Source: an uncultured Acidobacteriota bacterium (lineage in GTDB: Bacteria; Acidobacteriota; Thermoanaerobaculia; UBA5066; Gp7-AA6). Taken from it: a DNA stretch of 64,000 bases. The stretch is from positions 591,320 through 655,319 of the forward strand of contig CAWJKC010000003.1 of the NCBI GenBank assembly GCA_963843325.1, given 5' to 3'. Positions 985-28,746 of the stretch are shown here, piece after piece (position 1 is the stretch's first letter; the number at the start of each line of letters is the position of its first letter). The translations under genes were made by a program, and so were the position numbers. The notes beneath the pieces were generated by a model. The model was not told the origin of the DNA and did not search any database. It worked only from the letters and a program-made list of their open reading frames with translations.

Positions 985-2388
985 CTACTCCCCCGGCATC
1001 ACCTGGAACTGCTCGATCAACCCGTCCGGCATGTCCCGCTCCCAGATCGCGACGGACTTGTCCGAATACTTGACCTCGAACAGGCGGAACTTCATCCCGC
1101 CCCGATCGTTGCTGGTCTCCTGCTTGATCTCCTTGATCGCGCCGAGCGGCCCGAGGCTCGCGGCAAAGTCGCCGAGCGCCTGGTCGGTGAAGTAGCTGTT
1201 CGCGTTGGAGGTGAAGATCGCGCGGTCGACCTTCCCCTTCTGCAGCCCCTCCATGACCTGCCGCGCCCGCGCCTCGGCCGGTCCCGCGCCGCCCTGGGCG
1301 AAGAGGATCCCGGCGATCTTCTGGCTGATCGTCCCGGAGGTGCCGATCGAGTCCTGGTTGACCAGCACCACGATCGCCGCGCGGTCGTCCGGGAACACGA
1401 CGTTCTCCGCCGTGAACCCCGAGACTTCGCCGCCGTGCTCGAGCATGCGCCGGCCGTCGCGCCGCGAGACGGTGATGCCGAGGCCGTAGCGGATGCCGAG
1501 GCCGTTCTTGAGCAGCGTATCCGTCTGCATCTGTTTGTACGAGGCGGGCTTCAGCAGCTTCTGGTCGATCATGCCGATGTCCCACCGCGCGAGGTCCTCG
1601 GCCGTCATCGCGAGCTCGCCCGCGGCAAACAGCCAGCCCTTGCCTTCCTTGGGCGCGACGCGCAGCGGACCGAGCGCGTAGCGCTTGTAGCCGATCGGGT
1701 CGTTCGGCCCGAGCGTCTGCCGGTCGATGTCCACGATGCTCGCCATCCCGAGCGGCGCGAACACGCGCGATCCGAGGAACTCGAGCAGCGGCTTGCCGCT
1801 CGCCTTCTCGACGATCACGCCCGCGGCGACGTACCCGGTGTTGCTGTACTGGTACTGCGTGCCCGGCTCGAAGTCGAGCGGCTTCTCGGCCCACTTGTCG
1901 AGGATCTGCGCCGCGGTGACTTCCTGCAGCATGAAGGGCGGCACGTAGTCCTGCGGCCAGTAGTCCTGGTAGCCCGACGTGTGCGAGAGCAGCTGCCGGA
2001 TCGTCACCTCGTTGGCGCGCGTGAGGTTGGGCAGGAACTTTCCGACCGGATCGTCGAGCGAAAGCTTCCCGTCCTCGGCGAGCATCAGGATCGCCGTCGC
2101 CGTGAACTGCTTGCTCACCGACCCGATGCTGTAGCGCATCGCGGGGCGCGCCGGCGTGCGCGGATCGACCTTCGCGTCGCCGTACGCCTGGACGTACGCG
2201 AGCTTCCCGTCCCGCACCACCGCGATGGACGCCCCCGGCGCGCCGGACTCCTTGAGCGCCGCGTTCGCGGCCGCGTCGATGGCGGTGCGCATCTCCACTG
2301 GCAGTTCCGATTGCGCGAAGGCGCAAGTCGCCCCGAGGGCGATGACCGCACCGAGGATCGGAAGGATCTTGCGAAAGGTCCGGCTCAT
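985..2388 (-). CDS. Serine hydrolase, beta-lactamase/D-Ala-D-Ala peptidase family, secreted
   Basis: SxxK (SVSK), YSN and HGG motifs; signal peptide from MSRTFRK; AAGGAG upstream of ATG 2388. Confidence 0.9.
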   Translation of the reverse strand: MSRTFRKILPILGAVIALGATCAFAQSELPVEMRTAIDAAANAALKESGAPGASIAVVRDGKLAYVQAYGDAKVDPRTPARPAMRYSIGSVSKQFTATAILMLAEDGKLSLDDPVGKFLPNLTRANEVTIRQLLSHTSGYQDYWPQDYVPPFMLQEVTAAQILDKWAEKPLDFEPGTQYQYSNTGYVAAGVIVEKASGKPLLEFLGSRVFAPLGMASIVDIDRQTLGPNDPIGYKRYALGPLRVAPKEGKGWLFAAGELAMTAEDLARWDIGMIDQKLLKPASYKQMQTDTLLKNGLGIRYGLGITVSRRDGRRMLEHGGEVSGFTAENVVFPDDRAAIVVLVNQDSIGTSGTISQKIAGILFAQGGAGPAEARARQVMEGLQKGKVDRAIFTSNANSYFTDQALGDFAASLGPLGAIKEIKQETSNDRGGMKFRLFEVKYSDKSVAIWERDMPDGLIEQFQVMPGE

Positions 2389-2429
2389 CCTTGCTCCTTG
2401 TCGTTGCGCGAGGTTTCTGGCGGAGGAGT

Positions 2430-2876
2430 CTACAGGGGGTGCGTGTCCGTCAGGCGGTCGCCGCTTTTCCACTCATTTCCGCAGCTGCGGCACTGCACCC
2501 GATTCCGCCAGATGAAGAGGGGCAGCGGCGCAAACAGCATCGCGGCAGCCGCGTAGCGGGACCACCGGACCGTGACGAGATCGTCCGAGCCGCAGCGCGG
2601 GCAGACGTCATCGTCCCTGCGAGCCGGAAAGTCCGCGTCCATCTCGACGAGGGACGCTTCTCCGTCCGCCGCGAGCAGGGCAATCGCTTCCTCGGCCCGG
2701 TCCGGCGCGACCTGCAACTGGACGCCGCCAACCGCGGTCGAATACGTCCATACGACTCCGACCACCCACTCGTTGGCCAGGACGCACTCGATGCCTTCGG
2801 CCTCCAGCAGTGCGGCCGCCGCCTGCGCGTCGAGAACGTCGCGAAAGGTCAGCACGGTGGGTACGCCGTTTGCCAC
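2430..2876 (-). CDS. DUF2007-like (PII-like) protein with Zn-ribbon and membrane segment; possible gene cassette
   Basis: AxxxxxLLEAEGIEC...GGVQLQV pattern; CPRC...CRSC; starts 4 nt downstream of a decayed attC. Confidence 0.7.
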   Translation of the reverse strand: MANGVPTVLTFRDVLDAQAAAALLEAEGIECVLANEWVVGVVWTYSTAVGGVQLQVAPDRAEEAIALLAADGEASLVEMDADFPARRDDDVCPRCGSDDLVTVRWSRYAAAAMLFAPLPLFIWRNRVQCRSCGNEWKSGDRLTDTHPL

Positions 2877-2880
2877 GATC

Positions 2881-2947
2881 GGCTACCGTTTCCCTGGGCA
2901 GGGGCGAGGCCGAGCCGAGCCCGAGTCCGCTGCAACCTGGGCCAGGT
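2881..2947 (-). mobile_element. Strongly degenerate attC-like site (attC3)
   Basis: Plus strand keeps CAG.GGCGAGG and CGAGTCCGCTGCA, both shared with the intact attC at 5381-5456. The R boxes have decayed. Confidence 0.4.
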
Positions 2948-3738
2948 CAGTGTCACAGCAGGCCGACGAATCGAGGTCGTCGCATCGCCGGCGTTGAATT
3001 GTAGACAGCTCCCACGACCTGGAGCCGTCGCAGTAGGTCAGCCAGCCTCGTTGCAGCGGGAATCGCGGCCGTGAGGCAGTCGCGTCACGTAGTCGGACCG
3101 ACTCGCCACCCGACCAGTTCCGTTACTGCCTCAATGGCCTCGAATTCGCCCAGTCGAGCCAGCGCATGCAGCACAGCGTCGACTGACGACGGCCAAGTAC
3201 CAACCGCTCTCGAGCGCGCTAGCATCAGCCGTGGACGGGTCCCATGTCTGCTCGAACGACGCAGGTCCTGGTCGAGAAAAGGCCGGAGACGTATCGGCAC
3301 GTCTTGCGATCGGCAAAAGTCCGCTGGCCTGGCGCCTCAGTCCCGGCTTCCGCAGGCCGTTCAGCCTCGCCTGAGCCATGATGCGGCGCTGTCGTGCATC
3401 ACGTAGGTCCATCGGTACTTCGTCCCTGGAAAGGGTCGACCGGGCCGAAGGTCTCGTCGTAACCCCGACCGCTCAACCGAATCTGAAGCGAGTGGCGTGA
3501 GGGCAGCGATCTCCACGATGCCGCCACTCGATGGCCGGCCTCGCGACGATGCGCGCCAGAGCTTCGACGCGCGTGTAGGCGCTCACAGTGCTCGCGCTCC
3601 CGACACGGGGCCACCGCGTCATCGTAACGAGAACCTCAGGAGGAATCGTGCGAGGAGTCGGCAGCAGCTGACGACCAGCCGCCGCGAGAGGCCCAACAGC
3701 ACGAGGACGAGCAGCAAGTAGCGGACTCTCGTACAGCC

Positions 3739-3812
3739 GCCGAACGGCAGCGCATCGAGCGAGCGAACAGCCGAAGGCGAGCGAGCGAGTCCGCCGCACC
3801 CGCGTCTTGAGC
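3739..3812 (-). mobile_element. Degenerate attC site (attC2)
   Basis: Minus strand GCTCAAGACGCGGGTGCGGCGGACTCG...TCGCCTTCGGCT...GATGCGCTGCCGTTCGGC is collinear with attC1. Lies 10 nt after the stop of 3823-5334. Confidence 0.65.
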
Positions 3813-3822
3813 TGCCTGGACA

Positions 3823-5334
3823 TCAATTCTCCAAACGCCGGACGTTCGACGCCGCGTCCAGCCGGCGAACGAGGACCCCCGCGTCCGCTGTGGGAAAGAG
3901 TGTGCCTGTTGCCGGGCTCGAGGCCGGGAGGCTCGTGGGCACCGCGCCGACCGGAGTCACCAGCCAGGCGCTGCCTGTCCGTGGCCACTCTTTCGAGAGT
4001 CCAGCGGCGTCAGCGCCAACGTCGATGATCGGTCGAGTGCCTGGGCCGGAGCAACACAGCCAATCAGGCCCGTTCACGTAGTATCCAACGCACAGCTGCG
4101 TATAGGCGCCCGCCGTGAGGATTGGCACATCGCCCGGCTGACCGCGCAGGAAGGCCGCGACAGGCCGCCAATCGGGTCGGCCTCTTTGAAAGTAAAAGAC
4201 AAGGGCGCGCGCGTCGAGGAACAGGACGATTGCAATCGCGATCGGCGCGAGCCAGGCGCGGGGTCGTCGTTCCGCCAACCAGCCGATCGGGAGAGTCGCG
4301 AGCGCGGTCAGGGCGACACCAGCGGGCAGGAAATGAAAGATCGAGTCCCAGGCACCGTGGCGCTCCTCGAGCAACTCGATGATCGCGGCGCCAAGAACGG
4401 CCCAGACAACCAGGAATCGCAAGCGGTACTTCGAAACGGCAAGGATGCCGCCTCCGGCGACCAGGGCAATGAACAGCACGCCCGCCCGGCCCAGGGGGTA
4501 CCAATCATGGAAGCCGAAACCAAAATAGGAGAAGAGGCGCGCGACGCGCCTGGCTGCGAACACAGGAGGCGGCGTGAAGGGAGGAGCGCCCAATAGCTGC
4601 CAGACCGGAGCCAGCCAAGGCAAGTAGGCCACGGCGATGATCAAGAGCAAGCCCGGGCTCCACCAAAGGAGTCGGCGCGCCGCCTGCCTGCGGATGACAG
4701 ACCCCGTCAACGCATCGTCCAGGACGAGCGAGCTGCCGGCGAGCAAGAGAACCAGCGTCGCCAGAATCATCGTGTAAGCGACAGCGACTGCACTGACGAG
4801 AACCGCGACGAGTCGGACCCAACCCGGCCGGCTCAGGTATCGATCGATGAGAAGAAGTGTCAGCGCCGTCAGGAACATAGCGAGTGAATACGGTCGTACC
4901 TCCTGAGAGTAGTGGACATGGAACGGAGCAAAGGCCAGACACAGCGCCGTCACGAGTCCTACACGTGGATTGGCCCGCCGACCGACCAACAGTCCGAGGA
5001 CGACCACGCAACCCGTGCCCCACAAGGCTGGCAAGATCCGTCGCGCGGCATCCGACGGACTCAGCAGGTCGAACGCCTTCTCCAGGATGTAGTCGAGCGG
5101 TGGATTAAAGCGCTGCACTTGAAGCGTGTGCAACATCGTGCCCCAGGCCGACCGGATCGTGAAAACCTCCAGCATCTCGTCCAGCCAGTACGAGAAGCGG
5201 TTGAGTGCCGTGAGCCGAATCGCGAGTGCAACCGTGCCGATCAGGGTCCATGGAATCCACCGCGTGCTGTGAGCAGCCGTCCCTGGCTCCTTCGCGGCGT
5301 CGCCGTCAGCCGGCAGGGTTGCGTTAGCACTCAT
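3823..5334 (-). CDS. GT-C membrane glycosyltransferase (family 39/PMT-like), inside the cassette array
   Basis: SYWLDE, NPPLDY, YSQEVRPYSL and RPDWR motifs; many TM segments. Confidence 0.85.
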   Translation of the reverse strand: MSANATLPADGDAAKEPGTAAHSTRWIPWTLIGTVALAIRLTALNRFSYWLDEMLEVFTIRSAWGTMLHTLQVQRFNPPLDYILEKAFDLLSPSDAARRILPALWGTGCVVVLGLLVGRRANPRVGLVTALCLAFAPFHVHYSQEVRPYSLAMFLTALTLLLIDRYLSRPGWVRLVAVLVSAVAVAYTMILATLVLLLAGSSLVLDDALTGSVIRRQAARRLLWWSPGLLLIIAVAYLPWLAPVWQLLGAPPFTPPPVFAARRVARLFSYFGFGFHDWYPLGRAGVLFIALVAGGGILAVSKYRLRFLVVWAVLGAAIIELLEERHGAWDSIFHFLPAGVALTALATLPIGWLAERRPRAWLAPIAIAIVLFLDARALVFYFQRGRPDWRPVAAFLRGQPGDVPILTAGAYTQLCVGYYVNGPDWLCCSGPGTRPIIDVGADAAGLSKEWPRTGSAWLVTPVGAVPTSLPASSPATGTLFPTADAGVLVRRLDAASNVRRLEN

Positions 5335-5380
5335 CGAAAGTGCAGGGCGCGGTCCGTATCGCCAAGAACGGTCCTGGGTG

Positions 5381-5456
5381 ACCTAACGGGCAGCGCATCA
5401 GCGGCGAGGGAGGAGCCGAAGGCGATGAACGAGTCCGCTGCATGCGCGTGTTAGGC
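5381..5456 (-). mobile_element. Integron attC site (attC1, intact)
   Basis: Minus strand GCCTAAC ACGCGCATGCAGCGGAC...CCGCTGATGCGCTGCCC GTTAGGT: RYYYAAC...GTTRRRY ends with paired inner boxes, 76 bp. The upstream gene's TAA stop is inside R''. Confidence 0.9.
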
Positions 5457-5711
5457 AACCGGCCCGCGCCGCTTTCCGGCGGCCAACTCAATCGCAACCA
5501 CTAGGAGCGACCACCAGATCAGAATATTGACAACGATGCCTGCCACGATCACGAGGCGAGGGCTCGTGCCCGTGTGATCGATCGACCACGCGACCGCGGG
5601 AGCAAGCAACCGCACTAGAGCCGAGGATCCGACCAGAACAGCGGCGACTGGCCCCGCAATGGTGACGACAACTGCCCCAGCTAAGGCCCAGGCCCATGGA
5701 CGTTTCACCAC
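5451..5711 (-). CDS. Small membrane protein, integron gene cassette
   Basis: 86 aa with hydrophobic segments. Stop within GCCTAAC; bounded by GTTAGGC at 5729-5735 and by attC1. Confidence 0.7.
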   Translation of the reverse strand: MVKRPWAWALAGAVVVTIAGPVAAVLVGSSALVRLLAPAVAWSIDHTGTSPRLVIVAGIVVNILIWWSLLVVAIELAAGKRRGPVA

Positions 5712-5728
5712 CGGCTGAACTTCCGGTT

Positions 5729-5747
5729 GCCTAACAGTGTCTTAGAC
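5729..5747 (-). mobile_element. attI-like simple site heading the cassette array
   Basis: Minus strand GTCTAAG-ACACT-GTTAGGC: L box, 5-bp spacer, R box. Resembles the attI1 core CCCTAAA-ACAAA-GTTRRRY. No attC-like hairpin precedes it. Confidence 0.6.
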
Positions 5748-5912
5748 ATCACGGCCGTTGTCGACTGCACAGCATCGCGACCATCGGATCTGCGCCCGCT
5801 CCCCGCTGTCCAACATCTGTTCGACCGCTGATCGAATTCCGCCCTGCATCGGCTCGCCTCCCGGCTCACCTCGAGGTTTTCCGAATGATACCGCCGCGCC
5901 GGAAATGCCGGC

Positions 5913-6326
5913 CTAGTCGTCGTCCCCGGTTCCCTTGCTGACGCGGAAGACGTGGCCGTCGGGGTGCCGCACGTGCATCTCGCGCACGCCCCACGGCTCG
6001 TCGGTGGGCGGGAACGTGACCTCGACGCCTTGCGCGATGCAGTCGGCGTGGATCTTGTCGACGTCGTCGACCCAGATGGACATCCACACGCCGCGGTCGC
6101 CCGTCGCGGACGCGTCGCCGTGCTCGGTCGACGCGTTCGTGCCCCTGCCACGGCCGCCCTGGGCGCCGAGGCAGAGGAAGATCTCGCACTTGCCCGAGCA
6201 GACCGCGCCGAAGGTCGGCGGGGTTCCCCAGTCCCACTGCTTCTCCCAGCCGAGCTTCTTGAACCAGGCGAAACTCTCCGCCATGTTCGAGACGTTCAGG
6301 ATCGGTGTGAGGGCCTTCGCATGCAT
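5913..6326 (-). CDS. VOC/glyoxalase/bleomycin-resistance family protein
   Basis: LTPILNV...VDDVD...PTDEPWGVREMHVRHPDGH; GGAGG RBS. Confidence 0.9.
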   Translation of the reverse strand: MHAKALTPILNVSNMAESFAWFKKLGWEKQWDWGTPPTFGAVCSGKCEIFLCLGAQGGRGRGTNASTEHGDASATGDRGVWMSIWVDDVDKIHADCIAQGVEVTFPPTDEPWGVREMHVRHPDGHVFRVSKGTGDDD

Positions 6327-6409
6327 GTCCGACCTCCCGGCGCTCAAATCCCTGGGCGGGATTCATCGTATATAAAGCCGAGCCGCCGACCGAAACCGAG
6401 GAGTTGCCG

Positions 6410-6946
6410 ATGCCGGTCCGAAGACTTGCGTGGAATCTGGCCGCCGCCGCCCTGTTCGCGGCGTCTGCGACGCCGGCCGAGGTCGTGGAGTCGGGCGACA
6501 CGGGTTTCACGGTGAAGGAGACGGTCGTCGTCCAGGCCGACGCGGCAGCGGCCTACGCGGCAGTCGTCGCCGTCGGCAAGTGGTGGGACCCGGCGCACAC
6601 GTACTCGGGCGACGCCGCCAACCTCTCGATCGATCCGCGGCCGCAAGGCTGCTGGTGTGAGAAGTTGCCCAACGGAGGCGGCGTGCGGCACATGGACGTC
6701 GCGTCCGCGATGCCCGGCAAGATGCTCCGCTTCGTCGGCGGCCTCGGCCCGCTCCAGGGCATGGGCGTGCACGGATCGCTGACCTGGACGTTCAAGCCCG
6801 TCGAAAAGGGAACCACCGTCGAAGTGACCTACGTCGTCGGCGGGCACGCCGCGAACGGATTCAAGGAAATCGCCGCCGGTGTGGACGGCGTCCTGCACGG
6901 GCAGGTCGAGCGCTACGGGCGCTTCGTCGACACCGGCAAGCCCTGA
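6410..6946 (+). CDS. SRPBCC (START/polyketide cyclase-like) protein, secreted
   Basis: Signal peptide; WWDPAHTYSGDAANLSID...GGLGPLQGMG pattern. Confidence 0.8.
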   Translation: MPVRRLAWNLAAAALFAASATPAEVVESGDTGFTVKETVVVQADAAAAYAAVVAVGKWWDPAHTYSGDAANLSIDPRPQGCWCEKLPNGGGVRHMDVASAMPGKMLRFVGGLGPLQGMGVHGSLTWTFKPVEKGTTVEVTYVVGGHAANGFKEIAAGVDGVLHGQVERYGRFVDTGKP

Positions 6947-26321: not shown

Positions 26322-28746
26322 ATGGCAGAGCTCTGGCAGGACATTCGGTACGGACTTCGGGTCCTGGCCAAGAGCCCCGGCTTCACGGCCGCCGCGGTCG
26401 TCGTCCTCGCGCTCGGCATCGGGGCGAACACGGCGATCTTCAGCGTCGTCAACGCCGTCCTGCTCAAGTCCGCTCCCCTTCCGCGACGCCGACCGCATCG
26501 TCTCGGTCCCCCACGTGCCCCCGCAGGACATCTTCCCGGGCATGAAGACCTTCTCGGTCTCGCCCGCGAACTACTACGACTGGAAGGCGCCAGAACGACG
26601 TGTTCGAGCGGATGTCCATCTATACGGACGGCTCGGTCATCCTCACGGGATCGGGCCGGCCCGAGTCGCTGGCCGCCGGTTTCGTCTCGAGCGAGTTCTT
26701 CGCGGTCCTCGGCGTCCAGCCGCTGCTCGGCCGCCTGTTCGCCGAGGGCGACGACGAGCCCGGGCGCAACGTGGCCGTCCTTTCGGAGGAGCTGTGGAAG
26801 ATCGCGTTTTGGCGGCAGTCCGTCCGCCGTGGGTACCGCGATCGTCGTCAACGGCGAGAGCTCCACGATCGTCGGCGTCGTCCCGAAGGGGCTGGCCTAT
26901 CCCGCGGGCACGCAGATCTGGGTACCCCTCGTCTTCACGCCGGAAGTGCGCGCCCTGCGCGGCATCCACGACTTCCTGGTCCTCGCGCGCCTGAAGAAGG
27001 GGACGACGCTCGCGGGCGCGCGCGCCGCAGATGAACGCGATCTCCGCGCGGCTCGAGGCGACGTACCCGAAGGACGACAAGGGCTGGGGCGCCGCGGTCA
27101 TCCCGCTGCACGAAGACCTCGTCGGAGACGTGCGTCCGGCGCTGCTCGTGCTGCTCGGCGCCGTCGGGTGCGTGCTGCTCATCGCCTGCGCCAACGTGGC
27201 CAACCTCGTCCTCGCGCGGACGCTCGGGCGCCGCAAGGAGATCGCCGTGCGCGCGGCCCTGGGCGCCAGCCGCGCGCGGATCGTCCGCCAGCTCTTCGCC
27301 GAGACCACCATCCTCGCGCTCGCCGGCGGCATCCTCGGGATCGCTGTCGCCGTGGCCGGCGTCGGACTGCTCCTCTCGTCGTTTCTCGGTGAGCACATGC
27401 CGCGGGCTTCCGAGATCCGCGTCGACGCGCCGGTGCTCGCCTTCACGTTCGGGATCGCGCTCGTCACGGGGATACTCGCCGGGATGATCCCGGCCTGGCG
27501 CCTGACGCGCGAGGACCCGAACGAGGCGCTCAAGCAGGGCGGCCGCGCGGACGCCGACGCGGGCAGTCCGATCGCCCGCAGCGCGCTCGTCGTCGCGGAA
27601 GTCGCGCTGGCGCTCGTGCTGCTCATCGGCGCGGGCCTTCTCGTGCGCAGCCTCGGACGCCTGCGGGGCGTGAACCCGGGCTTCGACCCGCGCCACGTCC
27701 TGAGCGCCTACGTCTCGCTGCCCGACGGAAAGTACGCGACGCCCGAAGCGCGCAAGGCGTTCTTCGAGCGGGCGCTCGAGCGCGTCCGGGCGCTGCCCGG
27801 CGTCGAGTCCGCGGGCATGATGAACACCATTCCCCTGACCGACGGCGGATCCACCCAGCCGATCGCGGTCGAGGGACGCCCGGCCGCGAGCCTCGCCGAG
27901 CAGCCGGAGGTCGCCGTGCGCGTGCTCGCGCCGGGGACGCTGAAGACGCTTGGCATCCGCCTCGTGCGCGGGCGCGACTTCGCCGGCGCGGACGACGGCC
28001 GTGCGCCAGCCGCGATCCTCGTGAGCGAGGCCCTGGCCCGGCGGTTCTGGCCCGGCGAAGACGCCGTCGGCAAGCGCCTCACGCTGACGTTCTACCCGGG
28101 CGTCGTGCGCGAGGTCGTCGGCGTCGTCGGCGACGTGAAGCTGCGCGGCCTCGCGCAGACGCAGCCCCTCGACGCGCTCTACGCCCCGTACGCGCAGATG
28201 CCCCGCGGCACCATGTCGCTGCTCGTCCGCACGGCGCAGGACCCGCGCAGCGTGGCCGGGGCGCTCGAAGCCGCCGTGCACGCGATCGACCCGGAGCAGC
28301 CCGTCGAGGACGTCAAGACGATGGAGGAGCAGCTCGGCGCCTCGCTCGCGCACGCGCGCTTCAACATGATGCTGCTCGCCGTGTTCGCCGGCCTGGCGCT
28401 GCTGCTCTCGGCCGTCGGCATCTACAGCGTGCTGTCCTACAACGTCCGCCGGCGCACGCGCGAGATCGGCATCCGGATGGCGCTCGGCGCCGACGGACAG
28501 AACGTCGTGCGGCTCATCGTGCTCGACGGCATGCGCCCGGCCCTCATCGGCCTGGCGATCGGCCTCGCGGCCTCGCTCGCCCTCGGCCGCGCGCTCGAGA
28601 GCCTCGTCTTCGGCATCCGCGCGACCGATCCGCTCACGTTCGCGGCCGTCACCGCGCTGCTGGGGCTCGTCGCCCTGACGGCCTGCGCCCTGCCCGCGTG
28701 GCGCGCGTCGCGCGTCGAGCCCACGGCCGCGCTGCAGGAGGGGTAG
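26322..28746 (+). CDS. ADOP-type duplicated ABC permease without prefix domain; several frameshifts at 26470-27030
   Basis: [52 protein letters not shown]; GGAGG RBS. Confidence 0.9.

Follow-up and report, generated by a model that had tools for sequence, protein, structure and literature searches.

An attI-type site heads an integrase-less cassette array in an uncultured Acidobacteriota bacterium

A 64-kb stretch, referred to below as the window, from the genome of an uncultured Acidobacteriota soil bacterium of the Thermoanaerobaculia carries on its minus strand an array of integron cassettes that has no integrase gene beside it and opens on an attI-type site, i.e., on the same core sequence that follows the genome's own integron integrase gene (intI) on a different contig. 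The window corresponds to C3:591320-655319 of a 16-contig, 4.52-Mb metagenome-assembled bin (genome label G000; completeness 73%, contamination 3%). [quoted passage not shown] The action of IntI in trans, the continuing activity of the site, and the route by which its cassettes are expressed are the components of this reading that we infer.

A profile search returned a single integron integrase above cut-off in G000 (TIGR02249, 452.8 bits, cut-off 265; C6:45247-46185(-)), which is full length (model positions 1-313 of 315) and free of stop codons, and no intI match on the contig of the window, C3. This gene belongs to a complete integron at C6:42.7-46.2 kb, where intI adjoins its cassettes: seven attC matches (C6:42710-44644) lie directly downstream of it on the same strand, so that intI is transcribed toward its own cassettes, and a canonical attI (GTCTAAG-tacat-GTTAGGC) stands 38 nt past the intI stop codon, ahead of the first cassette. 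The attC sites of G000 form a homogeneous family of 76 bp, found by a crude palindrome scan and then by nhmmer, with 40 matches genome-wide at E<=1, namely 29 on C2 (C2:16-29973, an array that begins at the contig end), 7 on C6, 2 in the window, and 2 weak ones on C16. The original prediction, made from the letters of the window, had proposed that the array is served in trans, which requires just this arrangement, with no intI on the window's contig and one intact intI elsewhere that is associated with the same attC family.

An attI-like site had also been predicted at the head of the array, and its boxes and spacing recur after the intI of the same genome. Counted over both strands, G000 has 16 copies of GTCTAAG, 70 of GTTAGGC, and exactly two of the combination GTCTAAG-N5-GTT, at window 5729-5747(-) and after the intI of C6; by a rough estimate, the chance of a second full site in this genome is 16 x 70/9.04e6, or ~1e-4. 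All 14 specified core positions, along with the 5-nt spacing, are identical between the window site and the sites found after intI in G000 and in 10 further species. None of the 19 aligned attC sequences has an R'' box (GCCTAAC and variants) that terminates in G, and this box is set 62 nt from R'; the window core is therefore of the attI type and not of the attC type, by both sequence and geometry. The site does not adjoin an intI, as a conventional attI would, and it does head the array; that the first cassette starts at G|TT is indicated by the cassette-boundary rule described below and by the point at which homology ends between two other heads of this kind (G005:C68 and G041:C238). Nor does it resemble an attG site, i.e., a short GWT otherwise unlike attI or attC, as the whole attI core is present.

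The boundaries of the first cassette are consistent with its integration at this site. A perfect 13-bp inverted repeat had been noted around this cassette, and it is indeed present (5735-5723 and 5462-5450), extending 6 nt beyond the R box. Within the C2 array, 8 of 9 consecutive cassettes have a start flank complementary to their own end flank over 4-6 nt beyond the R box, against a mean of 0.86 nt for mismatched start/end pairs (n=91), only one of which reaches 4 nt. The 13-bp repeat is, by this rule, the normal footprint of a cassette boundary. As predicted, the stop codon of the 86-aa membrane protein gene in this cassette (TAA, 5453-5451) falls within the R'' box GCCTAAC (5456-5450) of the attC that closes it.

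The attC sites were evaluated with a covariance model (R1) built from 19 attCs of the C2 and C6 arrays, with the window copy left out (mean column identity 89%), on whose alignment the R''/R' and L''/L' helices were imposed, and the window was searched with filters off. The resulting 361 pair cells show 97.5% pairing, a value reached by 0 of 500 shuffles, with slid controls at 22-49%. The first site, attC 1, scores 98.8 bits against R1 (E 9.9e-25, match 5375-5462(-)) and 79.1 bits by nhmmer, where it ranks 18 of 40 genome-wide, and its quality is on par with that of members of active arrays. It carries R''/R' boxes of the attC form (RYYYAAC, GTTRRRY), matches the model of its own genome, and folds into a hairpin that is stabler on the bottom (+) strand (-20.9 kcal/mol, z -2.4) than on the top strand (-16.8 kcal/mol, z -1.9). 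The canonical 76-bp attC of the original prediction, a claim that hinged on a match to an attC covariance model, is hence upheld. The second site, attC 2, had been described as mutated, and this also holds: it remains significant (45.1 bits, E 5.7e-10, match 3733-3818(-); nhmmer 35.8 bits), both of its R boxes are mutated, and neither it (z +0.7 to +0.9) nor attC 3 forms a stable hairpin. For the third site, predicted as a barely recognisable attC at 2881-2947, the evidence is divided. It is absent from the 113 R1 matches at E<=10, and nhmmer gives E 0.97 for 2935-2904; however, it retains the 12-mer GCAGCGGACTCG, of which 26 of the 31 copies in G000 lie in the two arrays, one in attC 1, one in this remnant (2922-2933), and three elsewhere. 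This 12-mer is nearly attC-specific (28 of 31 genomic copies, the remnant included). The predicted gradient from intact to decayed is accordingly real for attC 1 and attC 2, and its third step, to a remnant, is plausible. A third-best R1 match at 28428-28516 (23 bits) was considered spurious because it lies inside a 571-aa open reading frame (ORF) and lacks R boxes. Overall, the locus has two significant attCs 1.57 kb apart, within the 4-kb limit used to define a CALIN, in a genome whose only detected intI is on C6; it differs from a complete integron in that no intI adjoins the array.

Cores of this type are found at several further positions in the genus. Exact copies of GTCTAAG-N5-GTTAGGC were detected at 17 sites in 12 of the 44 genus genomes scanned, and 11 of these sites, in 11 species, directly follow a TIGR02249-positive intI, with a consensus made up of the intI stop, ~35 nt, and cGTAGGCw-GTCTAAG-TACAT-GTTAGGC. 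The remaining six do not follow an intI and are distributed over 5 of the 44 genomes (the window, G005:C68, G005:C445, G041:C238, G036:C164, and G037:C19). In searches allowing one mismatch, a reversed-pattern control was about equally frequent, and mismatched sites were for this reason taken only after inspection, which added two orphan heads with the L box GCCTAAG (G005:C395 and G055:C2:279748). A model-positive attC follows within ~1 kb of all 8 inspected orphan heads, and a tblastn search with the IntI of G000 over the 2.5 kb upstream of these 8 heads found no trace of IntI (best E 3.6). One of the genomes involved, G041, encodes an intI with a canonical attI on a different contig from its orphan head.

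The attI sites of the genus are not all of the G000 type. In 7 of the 8 other congeners in which the region from intI to the first cassette was examined (G006, G008, G002, G003, G010, G018, and G014; loci L023-L025 and L027-L030), we instead observed GTCGAAG or a 1-2-base variant of it, 17 nt, and GTTAGGC (GTTAGCC in G010), with the 17 nt ending in GCCTATG (GTGTAAG in G002) plus 5 nt. The G000-type attI looks like the GTCGAAG type with ~12 bp deleted. In the integrons of the genus, including that of G000, intI and cassettes are on the same strand, with attI just past the intI stop. A distinct situation was observed at G037:C19 (L046 1858-5784), in which intI is cut to its last codons (..SDVDE*) and is followed by the attI core (spacer TACAT) and at least three intact attCs, while an 839-aa primase/helicase-like ORF and other phage-like ORFs lie upstream. 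This suggests that a mobile element destroyed intI at this locus and left attI and the attCs behind.

Comparisons between orphan heads indicate that different cassettes follow the same type of site. The orthologous loci G005:C68 and G041:C238 are 92.8% identical over 181 nt ending at the last base of GTTAGGC and are unrelated after it, and G036:C164 and G055:C2 share the upstream sequence gtttcacatgggc and diverge after the R box. The attI-type head of G005:C445 precedes a cassette that is richer in AT (GC 0.52) and has two small ORFs; next come an attC scoring 49.9 bits, then a GT-C gene, and last a decayed attC scoring 37.5 bits. This GT-C protein is 62% identical (amino acids) to the one encoded by the second cassette of the window and is preceded by a different first cassette. 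As the M3 peptidase, a core protein, is 67% identical between G000 and two congeners, the GT-C pair is about as old as the species, although the flanks of the two GT-C loci differ, so that the two genes may not be strict orthologues. More distant GT-C homologues (<=45% identity) in other congeners have 0 attC matches beside them in 10 loci, a result that is uninformative on the status of the gene as a cassette. As a separate observation, the first cassettes of the window and of G005:C68 share their initial 17 nt, GTTAGGCAACCGGAAGT (window 5728-5712; L019 6173-6189), and their terminal CCGGTTGCCTAAC (window 5462-5450; L019 6444-6462), yet their products, of 86 and 90 aa, are unrelated, each with PVA as its last residues; the attC ends are common and the cargo differs.

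The surroundings of the array suggest that it lies within resident chromosomal DNA (Table 1). In G006, G008, and G017, the beta-lactamase-like and SRPBCC genes are adjacent, separated by 120-260 nt containing the conserved sequence TTCATCGTATATAA, and compared to these genomes window 2430-6335 (~3.9 kb) is an insertion. The same spot is occupied by unrelated DNA of 3.1 kb in G013 and 8.4 kb in G012. Some locus tallies took in an unpublished genome, G024, on which no claim rests. The VOC gene has no close homologue in 43 congeners, and the closest relatives of the locus are two soil metagenome contigs, L133 and L134, with VOC proteins 96% and 93% identical to that of the window and flanks ~92% identical in nucleotides. 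On L133, the VOC gene is followed by a 198-aa membrane ORF and the beta-lactamase-like gene, with no attC. L134 shares with the window the VOC gene and ~115 nt beyond it (down to 5793), after which it displays a decayed attC (33.1 bits, R' GTTGAGC), a 145-aa membrane ORF, a DUF2007 gene (81% identical in amino acids), 190 further nt, and the beta-lactamase-like gene. Neither contig carries an intI, and the ORFs unique to each have no homologue in G000 or in the compared loci. The interval after VOC is hypervariable among close relatives, and each relative examined either lacks the locus or has a different version of it; the invariant synteny that would speak against a cassette array was not seen.

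These comparisons also reassign two of the genes in the original prediction. The VOC gene had been taken to stand where intI should be, and this view did not survive: its GC content at third codon positions (GC3) is 0.95, like that of the beta-lactamase-like gene (0.95), and it is conserved in the two metagenomic contigs, which points to a resident flank. The DUF2007 gene was confirmed as a gene, but its proposed role as an old cassette was not. In a more distant VOC homologue (L209, 65% amino acid identity; a single case), a DUF2007 plus zinc-ribbon plus membrane gene follows VOC after 8 nt, which, taken with the GC3 values, suggests that VOC and DUF2007 once adjoined and were split by insertion of the array. 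On this basis, DUF2007 would not be the oldest cassette nor VOC a stand-in for a lost intI, and given that VOC is host-like and conserved in L133 and L134, DUF2007 is more likely the downstream flank. Since GC3 is 0.95 in VOC versus 0.69 in the 86-aa ORF and 0.75 in the GT-C gene, the compositional break is located at the head; the DUF2007 gene has a value of 0.84, and for 26 C2-array cassettes the longest ORF has a value between 0.49 and 0.78.

Among the remaining predicted components, the GT-C gene is supported by its PMT_2 match, and the scrambled stretch of ~0.8 kb at 2948-3738 bears out its description, with flat GC content across codon positions (GC1/2/3, 0.64-0.68), no Pfam match for its ORFs, and, beyond attC 2, no similarity elsewhere in G000 or in the compared loci. 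A homology search with the 86-aa protein, covering proteins 47-151 aa long, returned nothing. A sigma-70 promoter scan of window 2300-6500 found none, so the route of cassette expression is one that we infer. As a side observation, TTCATCGTATATAA is conserved in the divergent intergenic region upstream of SRPBCC in four species (window 6350-6375; L031, L032, and L033), is now located in the window upstream of VOC and the whole array, and may be a promoter or operator. L134 lacks the SRPBCC gene and has the region of the M3 peptidase gene joined directly to that upstream of VOC (1028-1029 versus window 6386-6919).

Table 1. Features of the orphan attI-type head, its cassettes, and the flanking genes, in window coordinates
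Feature	Position	Strand	Description
SRPBCC gene	6404-6946		Upstream of the VOC region
VOC/glyoxalase-family gene	5913..6326	-	Pfam PF00903; likely ATG start at 6326, alternative TTG at 6347; upstream flank
Spacer from VOC to head		-	165 nt between the VOC gene and the attI-type core
Orphan attI-type core	5729..5747	-	L box GTCTAAG (5747-5741), spacer acact, R box GTTAGGC (5735-5729)
Presumed crossover G|TT	5735/5734	-	Within the R box of the orphan core
Cassette 1, extent	5734 to 5382	-	From the crossover in the R box into attC 1
Cassette 1, ORF	5451..5711	-	86 aa, hydrophobic, 2-3 predicted membrane helices; GTG start, TAA stop at 5453-5451
attC 1, intact	5381..5456	-	76 bp; R'' GCCTAAC, R' GTTAGGT
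Cassette 2, ORF	3823..5334	-	503-aa GT-C type membrane glycosyltransferase; PMT_2, Pfam PF13231, E 1.6e-7
attC 2, decayed	3739..3812	-	R'' GCTCAAG, R' GTTCGGC; 3 positions deleted
Non-coding stretch (~0.8 kb)	2948..3738	-	Read as the eroded remains of a third cassette
attC 3 remnant	2881..2947	-	Only the core 12-mer GCAGCGGACTCG (2933-2922) left; R boxes gone
DUF2007 plus zinc-ribbon membrane protein gene	2430..2876	-	Pfam PF09413, E 5e-6; probable downstream flank
Beta-lactamase-fold gene	from 2388 downwards	-	Adjoins the DUF2007 gene

Under the reading that we favour, IntI produced from the distant gene would release circular cassettes from the large arrays through recombination between two attCs, and insert these circles by recombination of the attC, as a folded bottom strand, with attI, using both its own attI and the orphan copy as targets with the crossover at G|TT. 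Given insertion at the attI-type head, the newest cassette would adjoin it, here the one encoding the 86-aa membrane protein and ending in an intact attC. Older cassettes would be pushed outward, and erosion of their attCs would fix the genes in place, first the GT-C gene with its decayed attC and then a dead cassette, while transcription may enter from upstream through VOC. The head itself may have arisen as a displaced copy of attI, or by chance as a mimic later put to use by IntI. We consider it possible, if doubtful, that selection maintains the orphan pads, the L box being conserved while the spacer and flanks drift; that the integrons of the genus are distributed systems, in which one IntI serves several landing pads, dispersed over the chromosome, behind transcribed resident genes; and that many CALINs are working acquisition platforms and not debris, with attI copies or mimics seeding new ones.

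Three other explanations of the locus were considered. The array could be a fossil, the product of a second integron whose upstream intI assembled it in cis and was later lost, in which case the head is a real attI that no longer receives cassettes. The loss of intI is listed among the origins of CALINs in the available text of Cury et al. 2016 (PMC4889954), and in the genus the same core is preceded only by the last intI codons at G037:C19, while G036:C164 keeps a 'gatgaatag' tail. In the window, however, no IntI trace was found within 2.5 kb upstream of the head, and the head lies only ~0.6 kb from the conserved intergenic region, with the VOC gene, host-like and retained by close relatives, in between. 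Furthermore, attC 1 should not still score like members of active arrays if every trace of intI had had time to erode, and we regard this explanation as unlikely. The head could also be a chance mimic of attI without attI descent, i.e., a secondary, attG-like chromosomal site that captured a cassette and would still act as a pad served in trans. Only GTCTAAG-N5-G would need to pre-exist, as TTAGGC arrives with the cassette, and with 16 GTCTAAG per genome and a probability of ~0.008 for GTT, ~0.1 pre-sites are expected per genome and several over 44 genomes, which is about the number of independent orphans. The capture of cassettes at genomic sites is documented (10.1101/2022.09.11.507474), and the canonical upstream GTAGGCW element is absent from the window. 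Against this, the attG sites described in the accessible part of that report consist of GWT with weak flanking motifs and are broadly unlike attI, whereas the window matches 7 of 7 L-box positions and the spacing, and none of the 14 other GTCTAAG sites in G000 has GTT at that distance. Such an origin therefore strikes us as improbable.

Finally, the head could be the terminal part of VOC's own attC in decayed form, which would make VOC the first cassette of an ordinary, attC-only CALIN. The decayed attC of L134 (33.1 bits) starts exactly where homology to the window stops, ~115 nt after VOC, and in the window itself 5794-5761 bears a weak similarity to the attC consensus 3' end (a score that 37 of 2000 shuffles also attain), while CCGTGATG, just before the L box, resembles the attC arm CCGCTGATG. 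R1, however, finds no attC in 5748-5912; an attC in place of an attI upstream of 5735 would have told only against the attI part of the original prediction. As the attC R'' box never ends in G (19 sequences) and lies 62 nt rather than 5 nt from R', as 14 of 14 core positions match the canonical attI, and as VOC has a host-like GC3 of 0.95 and four contigs with more distant VOC homologues show no attC when scanned, we deem this explanation very improbable.

Several observations weigh against an attI-type head served in trans by the resident IntI. The GTAGGCW element that abuts the L box at canonical sites is not kept in the window, and L133 and L134, the closest relatives of the locus, are without an attI-type head. 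Because L134 carries its attC at the very point of divergence, the differences between strains could reflect homologous recombination of entire blocks rather than the activity of IntI. G005, with three orphan heads, shows no intI in an assembly that is 94% complete and in 720 contigs; likewise, the bin of G000 is incomplete and could lack a second intI, and its intI contig could come from a close relative. In addition, no recombination event was seen directly, and the public sequencing runs are fragmentary: the best of them contained <=0.19 of the sampled words, and four soil runs gave short fragments with no joint at G|TT. An exact 30-mer across the orphan head had no match in metagenome_contigs. 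A joint skipping from 3726 to 5806, on one contig and with 32 letters on its shorter side, was set aside as it is not at the G|TT point.

Two further features of the resident arrays were noted. In the C2 array (C2:16-20606, locus L006; at least 27 nhmmer matches to the attC family), the head is unassembled, at the contig edge, and the attCs are intact across the first 9.6 kb and mostly lower-scoring beyond. This array is not contiguous with the intI-linked array of C6, and may be a second integron or another CALIN. Within the C6 array, three decayed attCs stand in tandem with almost no DNA between them (C6:44034-44269(-), L007 8035-8270; nhmmer 63.4, 35.7, and 43.5 bits), and may be ORF-less cassettes or attC duplications.

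The window locus resembles several described systems and differs from each of them. In the available text of Cury et al. 2016 (PMC4889954), CALINs are attributed to insertion at secondary sites, loss of intI, or rearrangement, and attI is given as unknown for most integrons. The window agrees with CALINs as described there in having two model-positive attCs on one strand and no intI on the contig, with a complete integron elsewhere in the genome, as in about half of CALINs; it departs from them in that CALINs are defined there by attCs alone, without annotation of their heads, whereas here the head is an identifiable copy of the resident attI core. Qi et al. 2023 (PMC9892861), in the portion accessible to us, report one CALIN with its own attI, in the Shewanella prophage M16-3, and the attI-headed CALIN architecture is therefore in print at least once. 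That report concerns a single gammaproteobacterial case, as far as its accessible portion goes, while the architecture is recurrent here in an Acidobacteriota genus, with comparative signs of cassette replacement. The attG sites and SALINs of Loot et al. (10.1101/2022.09.11.507474) are similar in that cassettes end up in the chromosome through IntI working in trans at a distance from its platform; the attG sites in the available text are GWT only, however, whereas the window site is a whole attI core heading at least 2-3 successive cassettes. Treponema-type integrons (PMC3607928) likewise have an intI transcribed toward attI, as in G000 and its genus, but belong to a different phylum, and attI copies away from intI are absent from the description available there. 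In delta-attI cassettes (PMC12901181), attI-derived sites out of their normal place are still recombined by IntI; according to the accessible text these are partial attI1 or attI2 sites that close a cassette in clinical class 1 and 2 arrays, whereas here a full core opens an integrase-less array. The literature available to us contained no occurrence of an orphan, ectopic, or multiple attI, with PMC9892861 as the only relevant precedent, although supplementary files might hold more. The present case adds a new phylum, the recurrence of the architecture within one genus, and comparative evidence that cassettes differ between orphan heads.

The origin and activity of CALINs have been an open question since these clusters were defined, and since most chromosomal integrons have no known attI, the heads of CALINs are not routinely sought. 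The attI core of this genus is short, conserved, and recognisable, so that the question of what heads a CALIN becomes testable. If the reading proposed here is true, the annotation of integrase-less cassette arrays would change, and a single integrase would place cassettes at several expressed positions of the chromosome, widening the capacity of the integron.

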